Below the pieces are notes generated by a model that saw nothing but the letters and a program-made list of their open reading frames with translations, had not been told where the DNA came from and did no database searches. Below, one piece after another: positions 4,462 through 60,709 of a stretch of 64,000 bases of DNA. Every line of letters starts with the position of its first letter. Within the stretch, counting starts at the first letter, position 1. This DNA comes from Eledone cirrhosa (taxonomy: Eukaryota). Both the position numbers and the translations under genes were made by a program. The stretch covers positions 12,958,001 to 13,022,000 of the forward strand of contig OZ024742.1 of assembly GCA_964016885.1 (NCBI GenBank), read 5' to 3'.

Positions 4462-6216
4462 CTATTGGGGTGATAACCCGTTTAGTTTTGGTTTAAATTT
4501 GTTAAGGAATAGATTTTCTTTGTTTATTCTTTGTTGCTGTGTGAACGAATATGAGCACTTGTAGAAGGGGAAGATTTTAAAGTTGGGTAGTGTCATTCCT
4601 GCGCAGTTCGCAATATGGCTGCTCAAGGGGATTTTTCTTGTGTTAGCGTCCCGGATTTGTTGGAGGTGGATGGTCATTCTTTTGCGTAATGTGGAGCCCG
4701 TCTGTCCTATGTAGTTGTGTTTGCACCCACTGCAAGTTATTGCGTAAATCAAGTTCTCCGAGTTGCAGGTGAAATTGTTTTTTACTGTAAATGTTTGGCC
4801 ATCTTTAAATGTAAATTTTTGTCCTTCAGTGAGGTAGAGACACGTTCCACAGTTTGTTCTACCACATTTGGTAACTGTAGGGTTGAGGATTGGTTTGGGT
4901 ATATTTGGTCCAGTGAGAATGCGTTTTAGTGATTTGGGTTGTCTTTTACTTTGAAGGATCTTGTGTGTTTCAAGAATAGACTTCATTTTTACATCTTTAA
5001 GTAGGATGGGGAGATTTTTGTGTAGGTGATCAAACATTTCGGTATTTCTGGGGTTGAAAGTGGATACATATGGCAGGGTGTTGAGTGTGGTTTTCTGTTT
5101 TTGATTGTTAAGTTGATGGGGATTTAGGTGTTTTGCCCTGTATATTCCATTGTTGATTATTTCAAGTGGAAAGGCTCTTAAGATAAGGGTGTCTCTTAGT
5201 TCCTTTAGTCTTTGCTCCCGTTTAGGTGGATCTGATACTATGGTACATATACGTTTGGCCAAATTGTAAGGAATGTTAAGTTTTGTATGTTTTGGGTGAC
5301 TTGATGTGAAAAAGAGGTATTGCTTGGAATCTGTGGGTTTATAGAATATATTTGTATCTAATTTCCCGTCTATTACAGAGATGAGAATATCCAAGAAGGC
5401 TAATTCCTTGGGATTGGATTCCATTGTGAATTGTATGTTATTATCTATGTTGTTTATCATGTTTTTAAACATAGTAAGTGAGTTCATGTCTTCTTGCCAT
5501 AGGATAAAGCAGTCGTCTAGATATCTTTTCCAATTGGCTTTGAGGTGTGTGTGAAAAGAGTCTCCAAATAAGAGAAGGGACTGACTGTATATTTGTTGTT
5601 CATGGAATCCCATGACTAGGTTGGCATATGTGGGTGCTACTTTCGTGCCCATTGCCGTACCTGATACTTGTCTGTATGTTGAACCATTGAATGTGAAGTA
5701 GTTATTTTGTAGGATAAAGCGGAGTCCGTCAGTGATAAAATCTTTCTTGATGCGTGTCGATATTTCTGATGGGTGTGTGTTAAGCCAGTATTGGACTGCT
5801 GTTATTCCATAGTTGTGGGGTATGTTTGTGTAGAGGTTTATTACGTCAAAGGAGACAAGAATTGTATTTGCACTTACCGTTTTAGGGAGGTGTTTCAGCA
5901 TGTCAAGGTCATCTCGTATGTAGCTCTGTATATGTTGTAGAAAGGGTTTCAGTAGGATGTCCAGAAAGTTGCTAAGTCTGTGGGTTTCACATGTAGGGCC
6001 TGCTATAATTGGCCTGAGTTTTAGGTCTTCTGGTGGTGTTAGTTCAATGTAATTGTTGGTTGAGGTGTCACATGCATTGCTTATGGGTTTACATTTGTGG
6101 AGTTTCGGTAAGCCGTAAAAAGAGCTTGTATTGCATTTGAAGTGGCTTATATAGTTAAACTCTTTTGTGGTTAAGCTGTTGCGGTATTTATTCAGTAAGG
6201 TCAAAAGGTTCCCCAT
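4462..6216 (-). CDS. PLE reverse transcriptase plus GIY-YIG endonuclease (584 aa, N-terminally truncated)
   Basis: FYGLPKLHK, LRPII, VSFDVINLYTNIP, GTAMGTKVAPTYANL, RYLDD, LAFLDI, SSHP, CGRTNCGTC, NLIYAITCSGC..YIGQT...RMTIH. Confidence 0.93.
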   Translation of the reverse strand: MGNLLTLLNKYRNSLTTKEFNYISHFKCNTSSFYGLPKLHKCKPISNACDTSTNNYIELTPPEDLKLRPIIAGPTCETHRLSNFLDILLKPFLQHIQSYIRDDLDMLKHLPKTVSANTILVSFDVINLYTNIPHNYGITAVQYWLNTHPSEISTRIKKDFITDGLRFILQNNYFTFNGSTYRQVSGTAMGTKVAPTYANLVMGFHEQQIYSQSLLLFGDSFHTHLKANWKRYLDDCFILWQEDMNSLTMFKNMINNIDNNIQFTMESNPKELAFLDILISVIDGKLDTNIFYKPTDSKQYLFFTSSHPKHTKLNIPYNLAKRICTIVSDPPKREQRLKELRDTLILRAFPLEIINNGIYRAKHLNPHQLNNQKQKTTLNTLPYVSTFNPRNTEMFDHLHKNLPILLKDVKMKSILETHKILQSKRQPKSLKRILTGPNIPKPILNPTVTKCGRTNCGTCLYLTEGQKFTFKDGQTFTVKNNFTCNSENLIYAITCSGCKHNYIGQTGSTLRKRMTIHLQQIRDANTRKIPLSSHIANCAGMTLPNFKIFPFYKCSYSFTQQQRINKENLFLNKFKPKLNGLSPQ

Positions 6217-6603
6217 TGTTTTGGTGTGTTTGTAGTTTCCTGTTTTTCATAGTATGTGTTGTTTTCTAAAATGTTAAGTGCGAGGGTCCTATAGTAGTCC
6301 GTATTCATAATGACAACAGTACCGGCTTCTTTGATAGTTATCTCAGGGTTGTTTCTAAGTGTGAATAATTCTTCCCATTCGTGTGTAGATAGGTTTGATT
6401 ATATGTGTATGTATATGTGTGTATATATGTGTATGTACACATATATATATATATATATGTGTGTGTTTGTGTGTGTGTGTATGTATGTGTATCTGGATGT
6501 ATGTGTATGTATATATATGTGTGTGTATATATATATGTGTGTGTATGTGTATATATGTGTGTGTGTATGTGTGTATGTATATGTATGTGTGTATGTATGT
6601 GTG

Positions 6604-7477: not shown

Positions 7478-7603
7478 ATTCGGCTAATTATTACCACGCT
7501 AAAAATTCTAATTTAGTCAAGAAGTAGCCGTCGAAACTACGTTACATATTGAGTACTCTGGTGCGTTATGGTCCATCTAATTCCTTACCACACCTCCTTC
7601 GTC

Positions 7604-8125: not shown

Positions 8126-8773
<648 letters not shown>

Positions 8774-8779
<6 letters not shown>

Positions 8780-8950
8780 TTGGGGAGGGTGATATTGTTG
8801 TAATAATATTGCCAGAATTAATAACACAAAGAGTGAGTGTGTTCTGTTATTAATTCTGGCAATATTATTACAACAATATGACCCTCCCCAAGTATAACAA
8901 TATTTGTTTCGACACACGATTTCATATCAAAAACGTCGCAAAACAAATAT
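8774..8950. repeat. Fold-back (about 50-bp arms) with one-sided tail, in (TA)n
   Basis: acttggggagggt..ttaataaca / tgttattaa..accctccccaagt; terminus resembles the HHR element at 63628. Confidence 0.8.
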
Positions 8951-10239: not shown

Positions 10240-10545
10240 GTGTGTATAATGGTAGCTATGGTTCTTCCATGGGCGGTATGGCAAAATTAGCACTCAATAT
10301 TCTTACAGAGCAGAGTGTGAATAGTATAAAAAAACGAAAAATCAGTGATGCATCTGGACTCAGTTTATTGCGTGTTACAATTGTTTCGCCGGCAGGTAGC
10401 TAGAGACATGATCACTGATCGCTGTTATCAGAATCAGCCAGATCCATACAGTGATCATGTCTCGAGCTACCTGCCGGCGAAACAATTGTAACACGCAATA
10501 AACTGAGTCCAGATGCATCACTGATTTTTCGTTTTTTTATACTAT
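10239..10545. mobile_element. Fold-back (about 97-bp arms) with HHR 3' half
   Basis: 10321-10417 inverts 10449-10545; GAAA-caattg-TA at 10479; about 80-nt tail on the left. Confidence 0.8.
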
Positions 10546-10757: not shown

Positions 10758-10817
<60 letters not shown>

Positions 10818-10822
<5 letters not shown>

Positions 10823-11377
10823 GATAGACATAGAATATTCGAAAATATTCTGTATGTTTATAATAAACATTTTGAAGACCTAATCGCTATAGAATAGAAT
10901 ACGTCACGTATTACAATTAGATTCTCGATAAAAGCAAGGGAAGTAACCTACGTGACGTATTCTATTCTATAGCGATTAGGTCTTCAAAATGTTTATTATA
11001 AACATACAGAATATTTTCGAATATTCTATGTCTATATTCACATATATATCGCTATTTCAGAGCATTTAATCCAATTTCTAATTTCTGCCGGACCGGCAAC
11101 CGCTCTTTCAAACCAGTTCCGTTACACAGCTAAGTATTCTATAAGTCTCTAGCTGTGTCATTCTCGATAAAAGCACTGGATATGTAATCCTGAAGATTTC
11201 TAATAAGAATGAAACGCGTAGGTTACTTCCCTTGCTTTTATCGAGAATCTAATTGTAATACGTGACGTATTCTATTCTATAGCGATTAGGTCTTCAAAAT
11301 GTTTATTATAAACATACAGAATATTTTCGAATATTCTATGTCTATCTTCACATATATATCGCTATTTCAGAGCATTT

Positions 11378-11385
<8 letters not shown>
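10818..11385. mobile_element. Retrozyme-like element: 310-nt tandem unit plus inverted arm
   Basis: tacgtgacgtattc at 10949 and 11259; 10818-10952 inverts 11217-11350. Confidence 0.85.
11186..11224 (+). ncRNA. Minimal type-I hammerhead ribozyme
   Basis: aatc-CTGAAGA(11190)-tttc..gaat-GAAA-cgcg-TA-ggtt. Confidence 0.8.
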
Positions 11386-11425
<40 letters not shown>

Positions 11426-11429
<4 letters not shown>

Positions 11430-14398
11430 GTTTGTATATGTATAATAAAGCCAAAACAATGCAGGTATGGACATAGAATAAAGAATGCAAAAGATATTGT
11501 TGACAATTAGTCTTTTACCTTAGATTTATTTAAATGTCCTTAATTTTCGAGATAATATCTCTTCTTCGGAGGGAAGTAAAGTTGTTAAACCAGTGTTCCA
11601 AATAGCTTGCCAAGTCATGCTGACAGGAAATAGTATAGGGTATCTGTTCTATCTCTAATGTCAAAGAGTTATGGTTAGGTGGATAAAGAGTAGTCTCCCT
11701 TTAAAAGGTTTGGTTTTTTTTTACATGCCTGTTTAAGTGCGTGGGAGAATGCGTGAATGTGTAAGTATGTGTGTATGTGTATGTGAGTGTGAGAAGATAT
11801 GTCTATACGTAAATGTGGGGGATAGATGTTCTCTCGTGTTAGAACTGCTCTTTGTGTGTGTATGTGTGTGTGTGAGAGAAAATAAGTGGAGGTGTAATCG
11901 TGTGTGTGTGTGTGTGCGTGTTTGTGGGAGGGGGAGGGGTGTAAATACGGGGCTAGATGCTCTATCAAGTTATAAATTGGATGTTGAGTTCTACTCTATT
12001 ATTGATTGGTGGTAGTGTTTTGTCTATAATTAGTGCTTCCTTAATTCTAAGATTGCCGAGGTTTCTTTCCTTAGTTTCTATCCTAACTGTTATGGTTTTT
12101 TCGGTGTTTTTGCATTTAACTAGGTGTTTCTTAAATGAGGAGGCGTTAGTATTGAAGTGTTCTTTTATTCTTATGTGGAGTGGTCTGGTGGTGCTACCTA
12201 CGTAGAAGTTTCTGCATTTGTCGCATTCTAGTCTGTATACAACGTAAGCCTGGTGGCATAGGTCTGTGTCGTTGATGGGACAGTTGGCTAGCCTGCAGCG
12301 GTTGTCATGTCTGGTGGAGTGTCTTTTGGTTAGCTGTCCGCGTAGAGAAGGACCTGAGTGGGCCAGTTGGATATCTAGTCCCTCTCTTTTGATAGCTCTG
12401 CGAATGGCTGTTGTTGTTTCGTCACTGAAGTGTGGGAGCTTCAGGAAGCAAGTGTTAGTGCCTCGGGTGTGGTGTCCTCTGTTCTTTCTGGCACGGTCTG
12501 TGGTGCATGTCGTGTATCCGTTCAGTTTGAGTACTTCCAGGAAATGTGTGGTGTGTGTGTCTCGGTCTCTAGCGTCGGTGCATTTGTTCCGGATACGTGT
12601 TAGTTCGTTCCTTATGTATCCGAACTTAGCGCCGACTGGGAGGGCCGATCTGAAATGTACGGACAGGTCCCTGCTGGCGGCTTTTTTTATAGAAGCACGT
12701 GGGGATGTTGCCTTCCTCTGTTACCCTGAGTTGGAAGTCCAGTAGGGATAGGGATCCGCAGTCATCGGGGTGTTCCATGCTGAACTTTATACTGGCGTCC
12801 ATGCTGGATAATGTTGTGTATATTTTATCCGCCTCCTCACGGGATGATGTAAGGATGAGTATGTCATCTACATATCGGGTGAAGAAGGTATGGGAATGGC
12901 AGGTATTGAGGGCTCGGCATACTAGCTAGTTCATATAGGTGATGGCCAGCAGGCCCGATAGGCTGGATCCATGGGTAATCCTGTTGTCTGTCTGTATGTG
13001 TGGTGGTGGAAGGTGAAGTATGTGTTGTCCACTGTGAAGGACAAAAGCTGGTGTATGTCCGTCGGATGGAGGCCGTAGCAGTGGATGTCCTCTGCGACCA
13101 TGCAGTCCGTCAATAAATCGACAGCTGGATGAGCGGGGACTGTAGTGTAGAGGGAGACCACGTCGAGGCTAAAGGCGTATCAATTTAGTTTAAGTTGTTC
13201 TGGCTGGAGTTGGTGTAGTCTACGTATGACTTCGTCGGAGCTACTGACATGCCCAGGGAAGGTGGAGAGTAGAGGCTTGAGGACCTGGGAGAGGAGCCAG
13301 GAGATTTTGTATAGGGGTCCTTCTATGCTAGAGACGATGGGTCTTATTTGTGTCTTAGTACTATTCTTGTGGGTCTTGATGTGGTGATAGAAAGTGGGCA
13401 GTCTGCTATTTCTAGTGGTGTAATTGAGCTTAACTTTATTTGGGAGTTGTCTTCTCCTACAGATGTCGAACCAGATGGAGTTGGTCTGTTTTTCGATCTG
13501 GGCTGCACTCATGTCCGGGATCTCTGTATATAATATACATTGTCGCTTAGGTGTTCAAAGGCTAGGTTGTTGTATGTGGTTTGAGAAATGACGCAACACT
13601 CTTTACTTTTGTCGGATGGTAAGTATATAAGTTCCCTATTCCGTAGGTTCTTCAGGGCGAGTTGTTGTGTCCTGGAGAGGTTTGGGGCTATCTTCTTCTG
13701 TTTCCGTAAGATGTTAAATACAGAATGTTTTAGCCTCGAGAGTTTTTCTTCAAGCTCGCGGTTGGCAGGCGGTGGACAGAATGGGCGATCCAGTTGGTAT
13801 ATCGGGAATCTCGGTTTGTTAGGTTCCGTGGTGTTGTTGCCGAGAGTCGATATCCATTTTAGTTGGTAGGCAGCCCGACAGAAATTCGTTTCTATGTCGA
13901 GCCATAATTTGTCGTCCAGTCTCTGTTTCAATATGAACTTGGGACCCAGGCTGAGGAGGTCTAATTCCTCTCGGGAGAGGGATCCTGTCAAGTCTGTGAC
14001 GTGTGTTGTTGGTCGGGGCGCCGCTAGGTTCGGTGTTGGTACCGTCTTGTTCGCCTCTGTTGGTGCTTAGAGTTGGGATGTTGTTAAGACGGTTAGCCGT
14101 GCTGAGTTTGAGAAATTTTTGCGTGAGGCGTATTTTCTCGTAGTCTCGGTAATGGTGGTATGAGCTGTCTATAGTGGCGGAGATAACTCTGGACAGAGGT
14201 TCTGGGGTTTCAGCGAGTTGTGGTACAAGGCTGGAAATAGTCCGTATGTGTTGTTGTAGCGTGCGGTGTAGGTGTTGTATGAGTTTTCTTAGGCAGAATT
14301 TTTGTATGTAGTTAAGTGATCGTTTGAGGGCTGGTGATTTGAAGCATGTTGGTAGGTGCAAGTTTTTGATATTTTGGGGATGATGTTGTTATTATGGG

Positions 14399-14404: not shown

Positions 14405-14459
<55 letters not shown>

Positions 14460-14465
<6 letters not shown>

Positions 14466-15490
14466 AGTTAATATACCCAAGGATACTAAGTACCCCTGGA
14501 AATATATAGGTTGTCTATGATTTAAGGTTGTTCTATGGTATTAATTTGACATACCAGAACTATAATATTAAGATAAGCAGAACAAGCAAAATTCAACCAA
14601 TTTTTTTAAATAAATTAAAAAATATAATTTAAATATTTACCTATTCTTTTGGCCCTGACCGATTGGTTTCGCTTTGTAAAACACCAGAAATCCAATGGAT
14701 TTCTAATGGAAAATCAAAGTTCATCAGAGAAGCATTTTCCTTTCCTAGGGCTAAAGACCCAGGAACGATAAAATATATTGTTGTCCGCCAGCTAGCACGG
14801 AACTAATAAGGTCGAAAAATGACCCGTACGTGAACTGCCCGAGGTAAGAGCGGGAAAAACATAGACGTGTTGTCTATCTCGTTACTAAAAATAGCAGCTA
14901 AATAGAAACAACAGATTTGTTCTCTACATAACGGAGAATATTTAAATTATATTTTTTTTTTTATTTTAAAAAATTGATTGAATTTTGCTTGTTCTGCTTA
15001 TCTTAATATTATAGTTCTGGTATGTCAAATTAATACCATAGAACAACCTTAAATCATAGACAACCTATATATTTCCAGGGGTACTTAGTATCCTTGGGTA
15101 TATTAACTTCTTTTAATATTCTCCGTTATGTAGAGAACAAATCTGTTGTTTCTATTTAGCTGCTATTTTTAGTAACGAGATAGACAACACGTCTATGTTT
15201 TTCCCGCTCTTACCTCGGGCAGTTCACGTACGGGTCATTTTTCAACCTTATTAGATCCGTGCTAGCTGGCGGACAACAATATATTTTATCGTTCCTGGGT
15301 CTTTAGCCCTAGGAAAGGAAAATGCTTCTCTGATGAACTTTGATTTTCCATTAGAAATCCATTGGATTTCTGGTGTTTTACAAAGCGAAACCAATCGGTC
15401 AGGGCCAAAAGAATAGGTAAATATTTAAATTATATTTTTTAATTTATTTTAAAAAATTGGTTGAATTTTGCTTGTTCTGCTTATCTTAAT
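14460..15490. mobile_element. Retrozyme-like element: ~480-nt monomer, inverted and circularly permuted; HHRs at 14653-14732 (-) and 15325-15404 (+)
   Basis: Left is rc(B-A), right is A-B-A'. cttct-CTGATGA(15330)-actttg..caaagc-GAAA-cc.aatc.gg-TC-aggg. Confidence 0.85.
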
Positions 15491-15507
15491 ATATATATAT
15501 ATATATA

Positions 15508-16058
15508 TGTAGATAAATCTACCAAGAGTTTACGGTAGTGTCCAATCCGTATGAAGAACTCAATGTAATCCGGATATCATGGAAAGAAGAGATGCAATGA
15601 AAAATCACTTTCGGTGAAAGATAAACGGAATACAGAGTCAAGATAAGATATTAAAAAAATAATGAATAAAACAATGAAACAGTTCCTTATATTAAACAAA
15701 AAAAGTTCATTATTTAACGATCGTTTCTGGGATATATATGTGTTAGAATTGGCATGTATATTTAACAGATCTATGTACAAAATTATACAAAATTATACAA
15801 ACTATCAAAATTAAATATACATACCAACTCATATATATGCCGTCTTCAGAAATAATTCTGAAGACGGCATATATATGAGTTGGTATGTATATTTAATTTT
15901 GATAGTTTGTATAATTTGTATAATTTTGTACATAGATCTGTTAAATATACATGCCAATTCTAACACATATATATCCCAGAAACGATCGTTGAATAATGAA
16001 CTTTTTTTGTTTAATATAAGGAACTGTTTCATTATTTTATTCATTATTTTTTTAATAT

Positions 16059-16063
<5 letters not shown>
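15508..16063. mobile_element. Fold-back (about 208-bp arms) with a long-stem-II HHR in each arm
   Basis: 15643-15851 inverts 15856-16063; CTGAAGA(15858)...GAAA(15979)-cgatcg-TT; about 135-nt tail on the left. Confidence 0.8.
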
Positions 16064-16969: not shown

Positions 16970-16972
<3 letters not shown>

Positions 16973-17157
16973 CGAAGGAAATGTGGTAAGGAACCAGGTG
17001 GACCATAACGCACCAAAGTACTCAATACTTAGGGTAGTAGAGTGGGTAATAGGAACAAGTAAGACCCCGACGGCTGAGCTCAAGCCGTTTCGACGGCTTA
17101 TTCTGGACAGAATTAGCCGTCGAAACGGCTTGCTCAGCCGTCGGGGTCTTACTTGTT

Positions 17158-17162
<5 letters not shown>
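16970..17162. mobile_element. Fold-back element, family A
   Basis: Arms about 17049-17105 and 17108-17162; about 78-nt tail; (TA)n flanks. Confidence 0.85.
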
Positions 17163-22334: not shown

Positions 22335-26893
<4,559 letters not shown>

Positions 26894-27555: not shown

Positions 27556-27630
<75 letters not shown>

Positions 27631-27632
<2 letters not shown>

Positions 27633-27902
27633 TTATTAAAATAACAGATTAAAGTTTAAGCAAAGAATCGCTGCTTTCACCCTTAACGGGATCTTCTGAA
27701 ACTGTTGGTTAGTTTCAGAAGATTTAGAAGTTTCAGAAAAATTGGTTAGTTTCAGAAGATCCCGTTAAGGAAAGCAGCGATTCCTTGCATAAACTTTAAT
27801 CTGTTATTTTAATATATATTTGCTCTACGGTTCTTATATATTTGATATATATTTACCCTTATCGAGCCCTCTTTGGATTTTAGTCTTCAAATTTATTATT
27901 AT

Positions 27903-28912: not shown

Positions 28913-29251
28913 TAACAAAGGAATTGTGGTAAGGAACTAGATGGACCATAACGCACCAGAGTACTCAATACTTCGGGTAGTAGAGTGGGAAATAGGAAAA
29001 AGTATGACCTCGACGGCAGAGCTCAAGCCGTTTCGACGGCTATTTCTGGACTAAATTAGAATTTTTAGCCTGGTGAATAAATAGCCGAACTTTTCAAGGG
29101 GGTACTTCTTTATATGGGGTACTTCCTTATAAGGAAGTACCCCCTTGAAAAGTTCGGGTATTTATTGACCAGGCTAAAAATTCTAATTTAGTCCAGAAAT
29201 AGCCGTCGAAACGGCTTGAGCTCTGCCGTCGGTGTCATACTTTTCCCTATA
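28913..29251. mobile_element. Longest family A fold-back; complete U3-A8 HHR at 29141-29234 (+) and its mirror
   Basis: cccc-TTGAAAA(29145)-..tattt...aaata..-GAAA(29208)-cggc..gccg-TC-gg(g)g. Confidence 0.85.
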
Positions 29252-46502: not shown

Positions 46503-46505
<3 letters not shown>

Positions 46506-46695
46506 CGAAGGAATTGTGGTAAGGAACCAGATGGACCATAACGCACCAGAGTACGCAATACTCAGGGTAGTAGAGTGGGTAATAGGAAAAAGTATGATAC
46601 AGACGGCAGAGCTCAAGACGTTTCGACGGCTATTTTGTGAGTCCAGAAATAGCCGTCGAAACGGCTTGAGCTCTGCCATGGGGGTCATACCTTTT

Positions 46696-46700
<5 letters not shown>
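46503..46700. mobile_element. Fold-back element, family A
   Basis: Same tail and arm end (ttttcctat) as the other copies. Confidence 0.85.
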
Positions 46701-47858: not shown

Positions 47859-47944
47859 GTGTGTGTGTGTGTTTGTGTATGTGTATATATGTGTGTATAT
47901 GAGTGTATATATGTGTATATATATATGTATATATATATATATAA

Positions 47945-48146
47945 ATGTCTATATAGTGTATTTTACAATACACTCTATGCTTAATTAAAAGCATTTCGAA
48001 GACCTTACGCTATTGTTTTATAGTAGTGACAGTCGCACTTACTTTAATTTTCAGCAAACAGGGGAGATAAAGCTGACAGAGCTCTGCTTCGCACTTTAGC
48101 TTATATATTCATATATATATCGCTATTTCAGAGCACCAATTCCAAT

Positions 48147-48552: not shown

Positions 48553-48989
48553 GATGTGTAAACACAACACGTGGTAGCAGCCAGTTGCAGATTTGGACTC
48601 GTTGTGTAAGCATGGATTGCTGTAAATTTTTCTTCCTTGTTGATAATCCAAAAATATCCACTTCCGTGACTTACCATCCGATTAATTGGTGAACTATATT
48701 TCTTTAATGGAATATATACAGGGAAGATTAATCATATTAAAAGGTATCTATTTTTGAAGTTCTAGTCAACTTTATTTTGTTACCTACCTAGTTATGCGTG
48801 GTTACACGCTTGTAAAAATTATCTCCTGTGATTATTCATGTTTATATATATGTTAATCAATTTCTAGTTATTATAAAATGCTCGGACCTACTCGATAGAA
48901 TCTTTGAGCTTATTTTCCGGGCAATTTGGCGCACGCCTATGGCATGACACCCATAATTTGGATATGTATATATATATATATATATTTAT

Positions 48990-50224
<1,235 letters not shown>

Positions 50225-55144: not shown

Positions 55145-55703
<559 letters not shown>

Positions 55704-55740
55704 GAAGAAGAAATTAAAAGATAGTTAAAAAATTTCCATA

Positions 55741-55810
55741 TATTTTATTATGCGCATTTCGAAAACAACATCATCCTGGGACAAAAATTGTGTTCTCATC
55801 AGATAAAATA
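55741..55810 (-). ncRNA. Type-I hammerhead ribozyme in a diverged relative of the 55252 family
   Basis: Reverse complement: tattttat-CTGATGA-gaaca..tgttttc-GAAA-tgcgca-TA-ataaaata. Confidence 0.82.
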
Positions 55811-56003
55811 AGGTAACATGATATGAGGCCTAAAAATAAATGCCATTGTTAAATAATAAATTAATCAACTAATACCTTAACACTTCACACAAAGTAAAAT
55901 ATTTCGTTTTAATCATTTTCTAACCCAGAAAAAAGAGAGAGAGAGAGACAAAAAAAGGAAAAAAAAATATTTTTCTTCCTCATAATCGTCTCTTTCTCCC
56001 TGT

Positions 56004-56518: not shown

Positions 56519-57610
<1,092 letters not shown>

Positions 57611-58699: not shown

Positions 58700-58849
58700 G
58701 TTGAGTAACCACAGTAGGTAAGGTACACAATACATAGCAGTGTATAAATTGTTAATATAGGAATGGCTTCTACAGGACTAGAACTGTTTCATTCGAAGAA
58801 AATCATCAAGCTTCGAATGAAACAGCTTTAGACCTGTTGAAGCCATTTT

Positions 58850-58856
<7 letters not shown>
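58700..58856. mobile_element. Fold-back of the 60493 family (HHR 3' half)
   Basis: ggcttctacagg..ctgtttcattcgaag / cttcgaatgaaacag..cctg..gaagcc. Confidence 0.75.
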
Positions 58857-58880
<24 letters not shown>

Positions 58881-60492: not shown

Positions 60493-60709
60493 TTTTTATT
60501 TTATAGAAGGAGCTTCTACAGGACTAGTACTGTTTCATTCAGATGAAATCTTCAGAACTTAATATGACACCCAGCTTCCTGAAGATTTCATCTGAATGAA
60601 ACAGTACTAGTCCTGTAGAAGCTCCTTCTATAAAATAAAAAAATTTTACTCTGCCATGTATTGAGTACCTTACTTACTGTGGTTATCCCCGACTCAACCC
60701 GGGACCTAC

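Follow-up and report, generated by a model that had tools for sequence, protein, structure and literature searches.

Introduction

Animal non-LTR retrozymes are non-coding, low-GC repeat units of 150–450 bp with a type I hammerhead ribozyme, which show tandem joints, a strongly self-paired predicted circle, insertions longer than one unit and co-occurrence with Penelope-like elements (PLEs) (PMC7229834; bioRxiv 10.64898/2026.07.22.740005). Insertions of endonuclease-bearing PLEs are characterized by partial tandem copies, an adjacent inverted and 5′-truncated copy, an overlap at the inverted junction, a 30–40-bp tail on one side only, AT-rich or (TA)n targets, and a hammerhead near the 3′ end (PMC8557442, PMC3846280, PMC11167929). 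The tail has been tied to two start sites of reverse transcription (PMC11167929), and self-priming at palindromic junctions has been proposed for rotifer PLEs (PMC3846280). The in vivo role of hammerheads in PLEs and retrozymes has been called “a mystery” (PMC7761336). In R2, the self-cleavage site of the HDV-like ribozyme correlates with the type of genomic 5′ junction (PMC3774820), which is a precedent for the idea of a self-cleaved template. Within the sections of main text covered, no report was found of PLE or retrozyme arms mapping to a hammerhead cut. Were arm starts to pile up at the cut, the question of hammerhead function would be partly answered from genome sequence alone, and the repeat family described here has enough copies for such a count.

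The insertion at 10819–11385 of the window, i.e. the whole 64,000-nt stretch of Eledone cirrhosa DNA analysed, is built from a 310-nt unit and shares each of the retrozyme features listed above. Its helix III resembles that of HHR_Amex1, and its basal U-U in helix II that of HHR_Amex2 (PMC7229834). It differs from retrozymes in carrying one hammerhead in 1.41 units instead of two, and it is known from DNA sequence alone. Inverted arms and tails were not found among the retrozyme features described in the main-text sections of PMC7229834 and bioRxiv 10.64898/2026.07.22.740005, whereas the present unit has both, and mobilisation by PLE proteins is thereby supported directly at the sequence level. 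The features listed for endonuclease-bearing PLE insertions are likewise all present; unlike those elements, the locus has no ORF and consists of a non-coding 310-nt repeat. R2 differs in that its ribozyme is of another kind, lies at the element's 5′ end, is efficient as a monomer, and was studied with many junctions and cleavage assays (PMC3774820) versus one junction here. On the basis of sequence, tandem organisation and insertion signature, the locus would work like a retrozyme unit inserted by PLE machinery: a unit with the full PLE signature of fold-back arm, tail and TA target, which supports mobilisation by PLE proteins.

Structure of the insertion

The 567-base insert is flanked on both sides by pure (TA)n, so any target-site duplication would be hidden (Table 1). 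The inverted arm proved to be a perfect reverse complement of the sense sequence (134/134 bases). Its start is ambiguous over 11217–11221 because TACG fits both pieces; counted from the base that directly follows the predicted cut, it lies at −4 to 0, exactly that base being the latest possible start. The preliminary description, according to which the arm begins at the predicted GUA site and is joined through a TACG microhomology, is thereby confirmed. The direct piece starts at +38 to +42 from the predicted cut. Its first and last 127 bases (10949–11075 and 11259–11385), spaced by 310 nt, are identical at 126 of 127 positions, with the single mismatch at 11036 (A) versus 11346 (C), and the arm matches the second direct copy perfectly, including at this sole differing site. 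Such a repeat structure is far beyond chance. No ORF of at least 100 aa was found over 10819–11385. Two features of PLE-type insertions are present, i.e. a head-to-head inverted 5′-truncated copy, and a tail on one end only (35 nt, compared with 36 nt in sister copy B). By its sequence, the locus is best classified as a young copy of a small, high-copy, non-coding parasitic RNA element with a PLE-type insertion.

Table 1. Features of the 310-nt element and its sister copies; positions are those of the window.
Feature	Position	Strand	Remark
Left (TA)n flank	10762..10819		likely insertion target
Inverted, 5′-truncated arm, without tail	10819..10952	-	equals 11217-11350 in sense
TACG common to arm and direct piece, at the head-to-head junction	10949..10952
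Direct piece, 437 nt or 1.41 units of the 310-nt period	10949..11385	+	crosses one intact hammerhead
Predicted long hairpin extending stem I	11160..11248	+	11160 pairs with 11248, 11175 with 11233
Type I hammerhead motif	11184..11226	+	predicted cut after 11220
Small predicted hairpin with TACG (11259-62) and CGTA (11266-69)	11256..11270	+	direct piece begins here one period upstream
One-sided 3′ tail, 35 nt	11351..11385	+	direct piece only; 26 nt if the short end is set at 11359
Right (TA)n flank	11384..11426
Sister copy B	8231..8717	-	66-68% identical, period 313, same tail
Sister copy B2	47940..48146		arm 76% identical to B

Numbered according to the established hammerhead consensus, the motif comprises a 6-bp stem I (11184–11189/11221–11226), CUGAAGA (11190–11196), stem II (11197–11210), GAAA (11211–11214) and the GUA triplet (11218–11220). 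All defining parts of a hammerhead were found (the CUGANGA and GAAA core, an NUH triplet, stems I and II, and helix III), with a U-U at the base of stem II and a minimal helix III of a single A-U pair capped by a palindromic CGCG. The core is conserved in the family contigs except at the variable N position, CUGAUGA accounting for most of the summed depth and CUGAAGA being the form at this locus. Rfam returned no matches at gathering score across the whole window, so the hammerhead call is based on the core motif and its pairing.

Axolotl hammerheads with these features were cleaved to 6% and 22% in 1 h as monomers and far better as dimers, the poor monomer cleavage of 6% in 1 h belonging to the helix III type seen here (PMC7229834). 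Minimal PLE hammerheads show weak cutting in vitro (PMC4209133), and a reconstituted anole PLE was inserted without need for cleavage, with no RNA reads starting or ending at the cut (PMC11167929). By analogy with these data, partial self-cleavage of the hammerhead in Table 1 would be plausible.

The 310-nt family in contigs

The 310-nt unit, which has a GC percentage of 34, was matched by 534, 549 and 718 contigs in the three runs available for one sample. Head-to-tail joints, leading from 11374–11385 back to 11076–11083, were abundant in the family contigs (depth up to 4881), and a loose end behind 11359 continuing into (TA)n recurred in 12, 9 and 9 contigs of the three runs, respectively. 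The predicted circular fold reached −68.1 kcal/mol, versus −46.9 ± 4.7 kcal/mol in shuffled sequences, and none of the 100 shuffles was as low. The identification as a 310-nt retrozyme made in the preliminary description is thus upheld by the hammerhead motif, the period, the tandem joints and the strongly self-paired predicted circle. With its single hammerhead, the locus lies outside the definition of an “active” copy as two consecutive units that both carry a full hammerhead (Li et al. 2026). Pattern scans for family copies returned no loci in viral contigs and none in metagenome contigs. No RNA run was listed as carrying the unit; 17 rows with word shares of 0.29–0.36 were left out.

The joint table of these contigs contained no strand-change joint in the three runs of the one sample, and the junction of this very locus was also absent, so the contig test has no power to count arms. 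Among the 18 of 102 loose-end rows that were listed, 12 upstream loose ends were examined, and two of these, checked by script, are probable rather than proven fold-backs of the family, inferred from loose ends equal to the reverse complement of the unit. Their arms start at +87 to +95 and at +137 to +145, with eight shared bases each. By visual inspection, the remaining 10 were assigned to sense-strand variants, TA runs or other sequence, and two of them, at 11223, run on across the cut in sense.

The sole internal joint in the table leads from 11220 to 11266, skipping 45 nt, and was present in one contig each in two of the three runs (depth 2.65 and 5.37), its 21-base side at 80% likeness belonging to a class that is often spurious. 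One side of the joint lies exactly at the predicted cut. It connects two CGTA words and leads to the small hairpin that also holds the junction of the present locus, and alignments that treat it as a misplaced fold-back require many gaps.

PLE-type ORFs and proposed mechanism

When five ORFs of the window were scanned against Pfam, two returned matches, both of them PLE-type. One is an uninterrupted Penelope-like ORF of 594 aa at 4462–6246 (minus strand) with reverse transcriptase (RT) and GIY-YIG matches (domains at 4465–6246), and the other a broken Penelope-like ORF in several frames at 11965–14388 (minus strand), which adjoins the element and has its GIY-YIG match at 11968–12720. The RT plus GIY-YIG ORF of an autonomous PLE was thus found elsewhere in the window and not inside the element. 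No autonomous partner with a matching end was identified.

The locus probably represents the young insertion of a 310-nt retroelement that bears a hammerhead and is non-autonomous, copied and placed in trans by a PLE protein into (TA)n, with the end of its arm set by microhomology. The process would begin with RNA from tandem copies, whose joints are present in the DNA, either as a multimer or as a circle. A PLE endonuclease would cut the (TA)n target, and reverse transcription would yield one piece with tail and one without, the two ends being visible at the locus and their cause adopted from the literature. One cDNA spans 437 nt through the intact hammerhead, so its template was uncut or re-ligated at that point. 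The head-to-head junction would form by TACG/CGTA pairing in one of two ways: two cDNA 3′ ends would pair with each other, or the long cDNA would snap back, its 3′ end pairing at TACG within itself and being extended. Snap-back would yield exactly the observed sequence with the arm copied from DNA, and the perfect identity of the arm to the second direct copy makes it a compatible route. A microhomology in which the GUA triplet happens to be contained, and not run-off at a cut end, would determine the 5′ end of the arm.

Arm starts in sister copies and other families

In the sister copy B, a hammerhead-like motif has its GUC at 8396–8394. The arm of this copy (8614–8717) begins at +23 by alignment, exact matching giving +28 because of one mismatch, and its direct piece begins at +92. 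Sister copy B2 was recovered with an alignment score of 162, versus a maximum of 53 in 300 shuffles. Its arm (48095–47940, minus strand) begins at −21 and crosses the GUC, and a short direct piece with tail covers about 48096–48146. The arms of B and B2 also stop at the tail-less end, as does the arm at 10819–10952. All three sister arms (−21, −4 to 0, and +23) begin within 25 nt of the cut, with a 3–10% chance of this for the two unselected ones. In the family group, one of five arms starts at the cut (95% interval 0.5–72%), and that one is the case selected for it.

Among other window elements, the fold-back at 48963–50168 has its arm start at −128 and the partner piece at −44, and that at 60494–60685 has the arm at −39 with the partner further upstream. 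At 58706–58857 the arm starts at about −24 and the partner at −38, whereas both pieces start at −104 or further in 22493–22808 and at −107 or further in 55341–55679. Considering all window elements with a locatable hammerhead motif (n = 8, the three sisters included), one arm and none of the partner pieces begins at the cut, and in all eight at least one piece crosses the predicted cut intact. Together with the two contig cases, one of the 10 scorable arms starts at the cut (95% interval 0.3–45%), in a tally that is biased against a self-cleaved template across families, since an arm that starts at or after the cut loses the motif and cannot be scored. With uniform placement and a 5-base window in 310, at least one cut-site arm among 10 is expected in 15% of cases. 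The coincidence of arm start and cut is not beyond chance, and an obligate rule of arm starts at the cleavage nucleotide is excluded.

Two elements with unconfirmed hammerheads, 14454–15497 and 56736–57544, were left out of the tally; their arms start more than 200 nt upstream of a CUGA-like core, and they would have counted against a self-cleaved template. Also left out were the motif-free fold-backs among the 37 inverted-pair rows (e.g. 8775–8896, 10321–10545, 15643–16063, 27629–27819 and 28992–29250).

In two other hammerhead families (49405, 60555–60579 and 58808–58815), several breakpoints fall on the CUGA core or no more than about 15 nt away from it, and not at the cut, relative to which their positions are −44, −39, −38 and −24.

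Origin of the arm start

Run-off of reverse transcription on an RNA cleaved behind GUA would leave a cDNA whose last base is the complement of 11221, and in which TACG is missing. Pairing through TACG, conversely, requires that the cDNA had been extended at least 4 nt beyond the cut, on a template that was uncut or re-ligated. The start at the cut site and the TACG microhomology cannot, in consequence, both be mechanistic. The microhomology route also needs luck, as three of the 372 possible junctions with at least four shared bases cover the cut. A rough likelihood ratio of run-off to microhomology is 0.16–8 under the assumed rates, falling below 1 if cut-site arms make up 10% or less of all arms, and with this dependence on rates the junction alone does not decide.

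The preliminary description took the template to have been a self-cleaved RNA and the junction to be a genomic footprint of ribozyme activity. In that explanation, some templates would be hammerhead-cut RNAs, the reverse transcriptase running off the 5′-OH end at 11221 and the cDNA then being joined, or jumping, to the other cDNA; in a variant, a partly cut multimer beginning at the cut could supply the template for the arm (0 to +130) as well as for the direct piece (+38 to +474). The latest possible arm start at exactly the first base after GUA agrees with this, as do the intact motif, the canonical core in the family majority, and the precedent of R2, where ribozyme cuts set genomic 5′ junctions (PMC3774820). 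Sister copy B, with its starts at +23 and +92, is compatible with a template beginning at the cut, but the B2 arm crosses the cut by 21 nt, and cut-site arms number one of five in the family group and one of 10 overall. The weak direct joint in contigs ends exactly at 11220, yet its short side is of an often spurious class and it lies between two CGTA words. Run-off moreover requires an accidental match of four bases, which arises for one in 310 partner positions, and the anole PLE was recovered without reads at the cut (PMC11167929). We regard this origin of the junction as improbable, and the footprint claim is not borne out by the sister arms at +23 and −21, the overall count of cut-site arms and the TACG argument; the start of the arm at the cut is probably a coincidence. 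That a minority of family cDNAs end by run-off at the hammerhead cut, or jump there, is likewise doubtful. If it were true, in vivo cleavage would be recorded in the genome by the junction described here and by the contig joint at 11220, cut RNA would be a real template for Penelope-type insertion, and arm starts would offer a sequence-only readout of hammerhead activity.

Breakpoints could instead be loosely enriched in or just upstream of the hammerhead hairpin, through stalling of the RT or a start of the RNA just upstream of the core, and the arm would then mark the ribozyme fold or the RNA start and not the scissile bond. The sister arms at −21, −4 to 0 and +23, the breakpoints of other window families at or near the CUGA core, and the long predicted hairpin at 11160–11248 all fit, and the clustering of sister-arm and CUGA-core breakpoints speaks more for a loose effect of structure or RNA start than for the scissile bond. 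However, the data points are few, starts elsewhere are found at −104 or beyond and at +87 or beyond, and one family has its motif so close to the 3′ end that no other arms can be seen. Arm lengths of 100–155 nt may also be typical truncation lengths (10% chance). Such an enrichment is thus rather unlikely as the explanation of the arm. Formation of the arm after insertion or during assembly, by a fold-back duplication or chimera at the DNA level independent of retrotransposition, would account for the identity of the arm to the adjoining copy and for the absence of the junction from the contigs of three runs of one sample. Contigs of high-copy repeats drop rare junctions, however, and the sample may come from another individual. 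The arm ends at the recurrent tail-less end of the family, like those of B and B2, and the same layout recurs across the families in the window, which makes this origin highly improbable.

Other elements in the window

Another repeat family, whose tail is one-sided and measures about 80 nt in three copies, was present at 1877–2041, 16972–17159, 46505–46697, 28915–29247 and 7480–7602. In three of its four fold-backs the turn lies within a few bases of a common site, some 55 nt away from the short end, and no hammerhead core was seen. The turn site may be a breakpoint hotspot; alternatively, a palindrome already present may itself have been copied. Near-perfect fold-back palindromes are located at 10321–10545 and 15643–16063; neither a hammerhead motif nor a second copy in the window was found for them.

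The element at 14454–15497 is a fold-back with a 483-nt period and an inverted arm longer than one unit; its CUGAUGA core, at 15330, shows no clear hammerhead fold. The element at 48963–50168 has a 426-nt period, contains a TA-rich stretch internally and carries the hammerhead three times, twice direct and once inverted, which makes it the closest to a two-ribozyme retrozyme in the window. At 55333–55835, three hammerhead-bearing pieces lie around a TA run, in head-to-head and next in tail-to-tail order. Further type I hammerhead-like motifs were identified at 2252, 23015, 47276 (minus strand) and 30482 (minus strand), three of them in one family with a TA-rich helix III.
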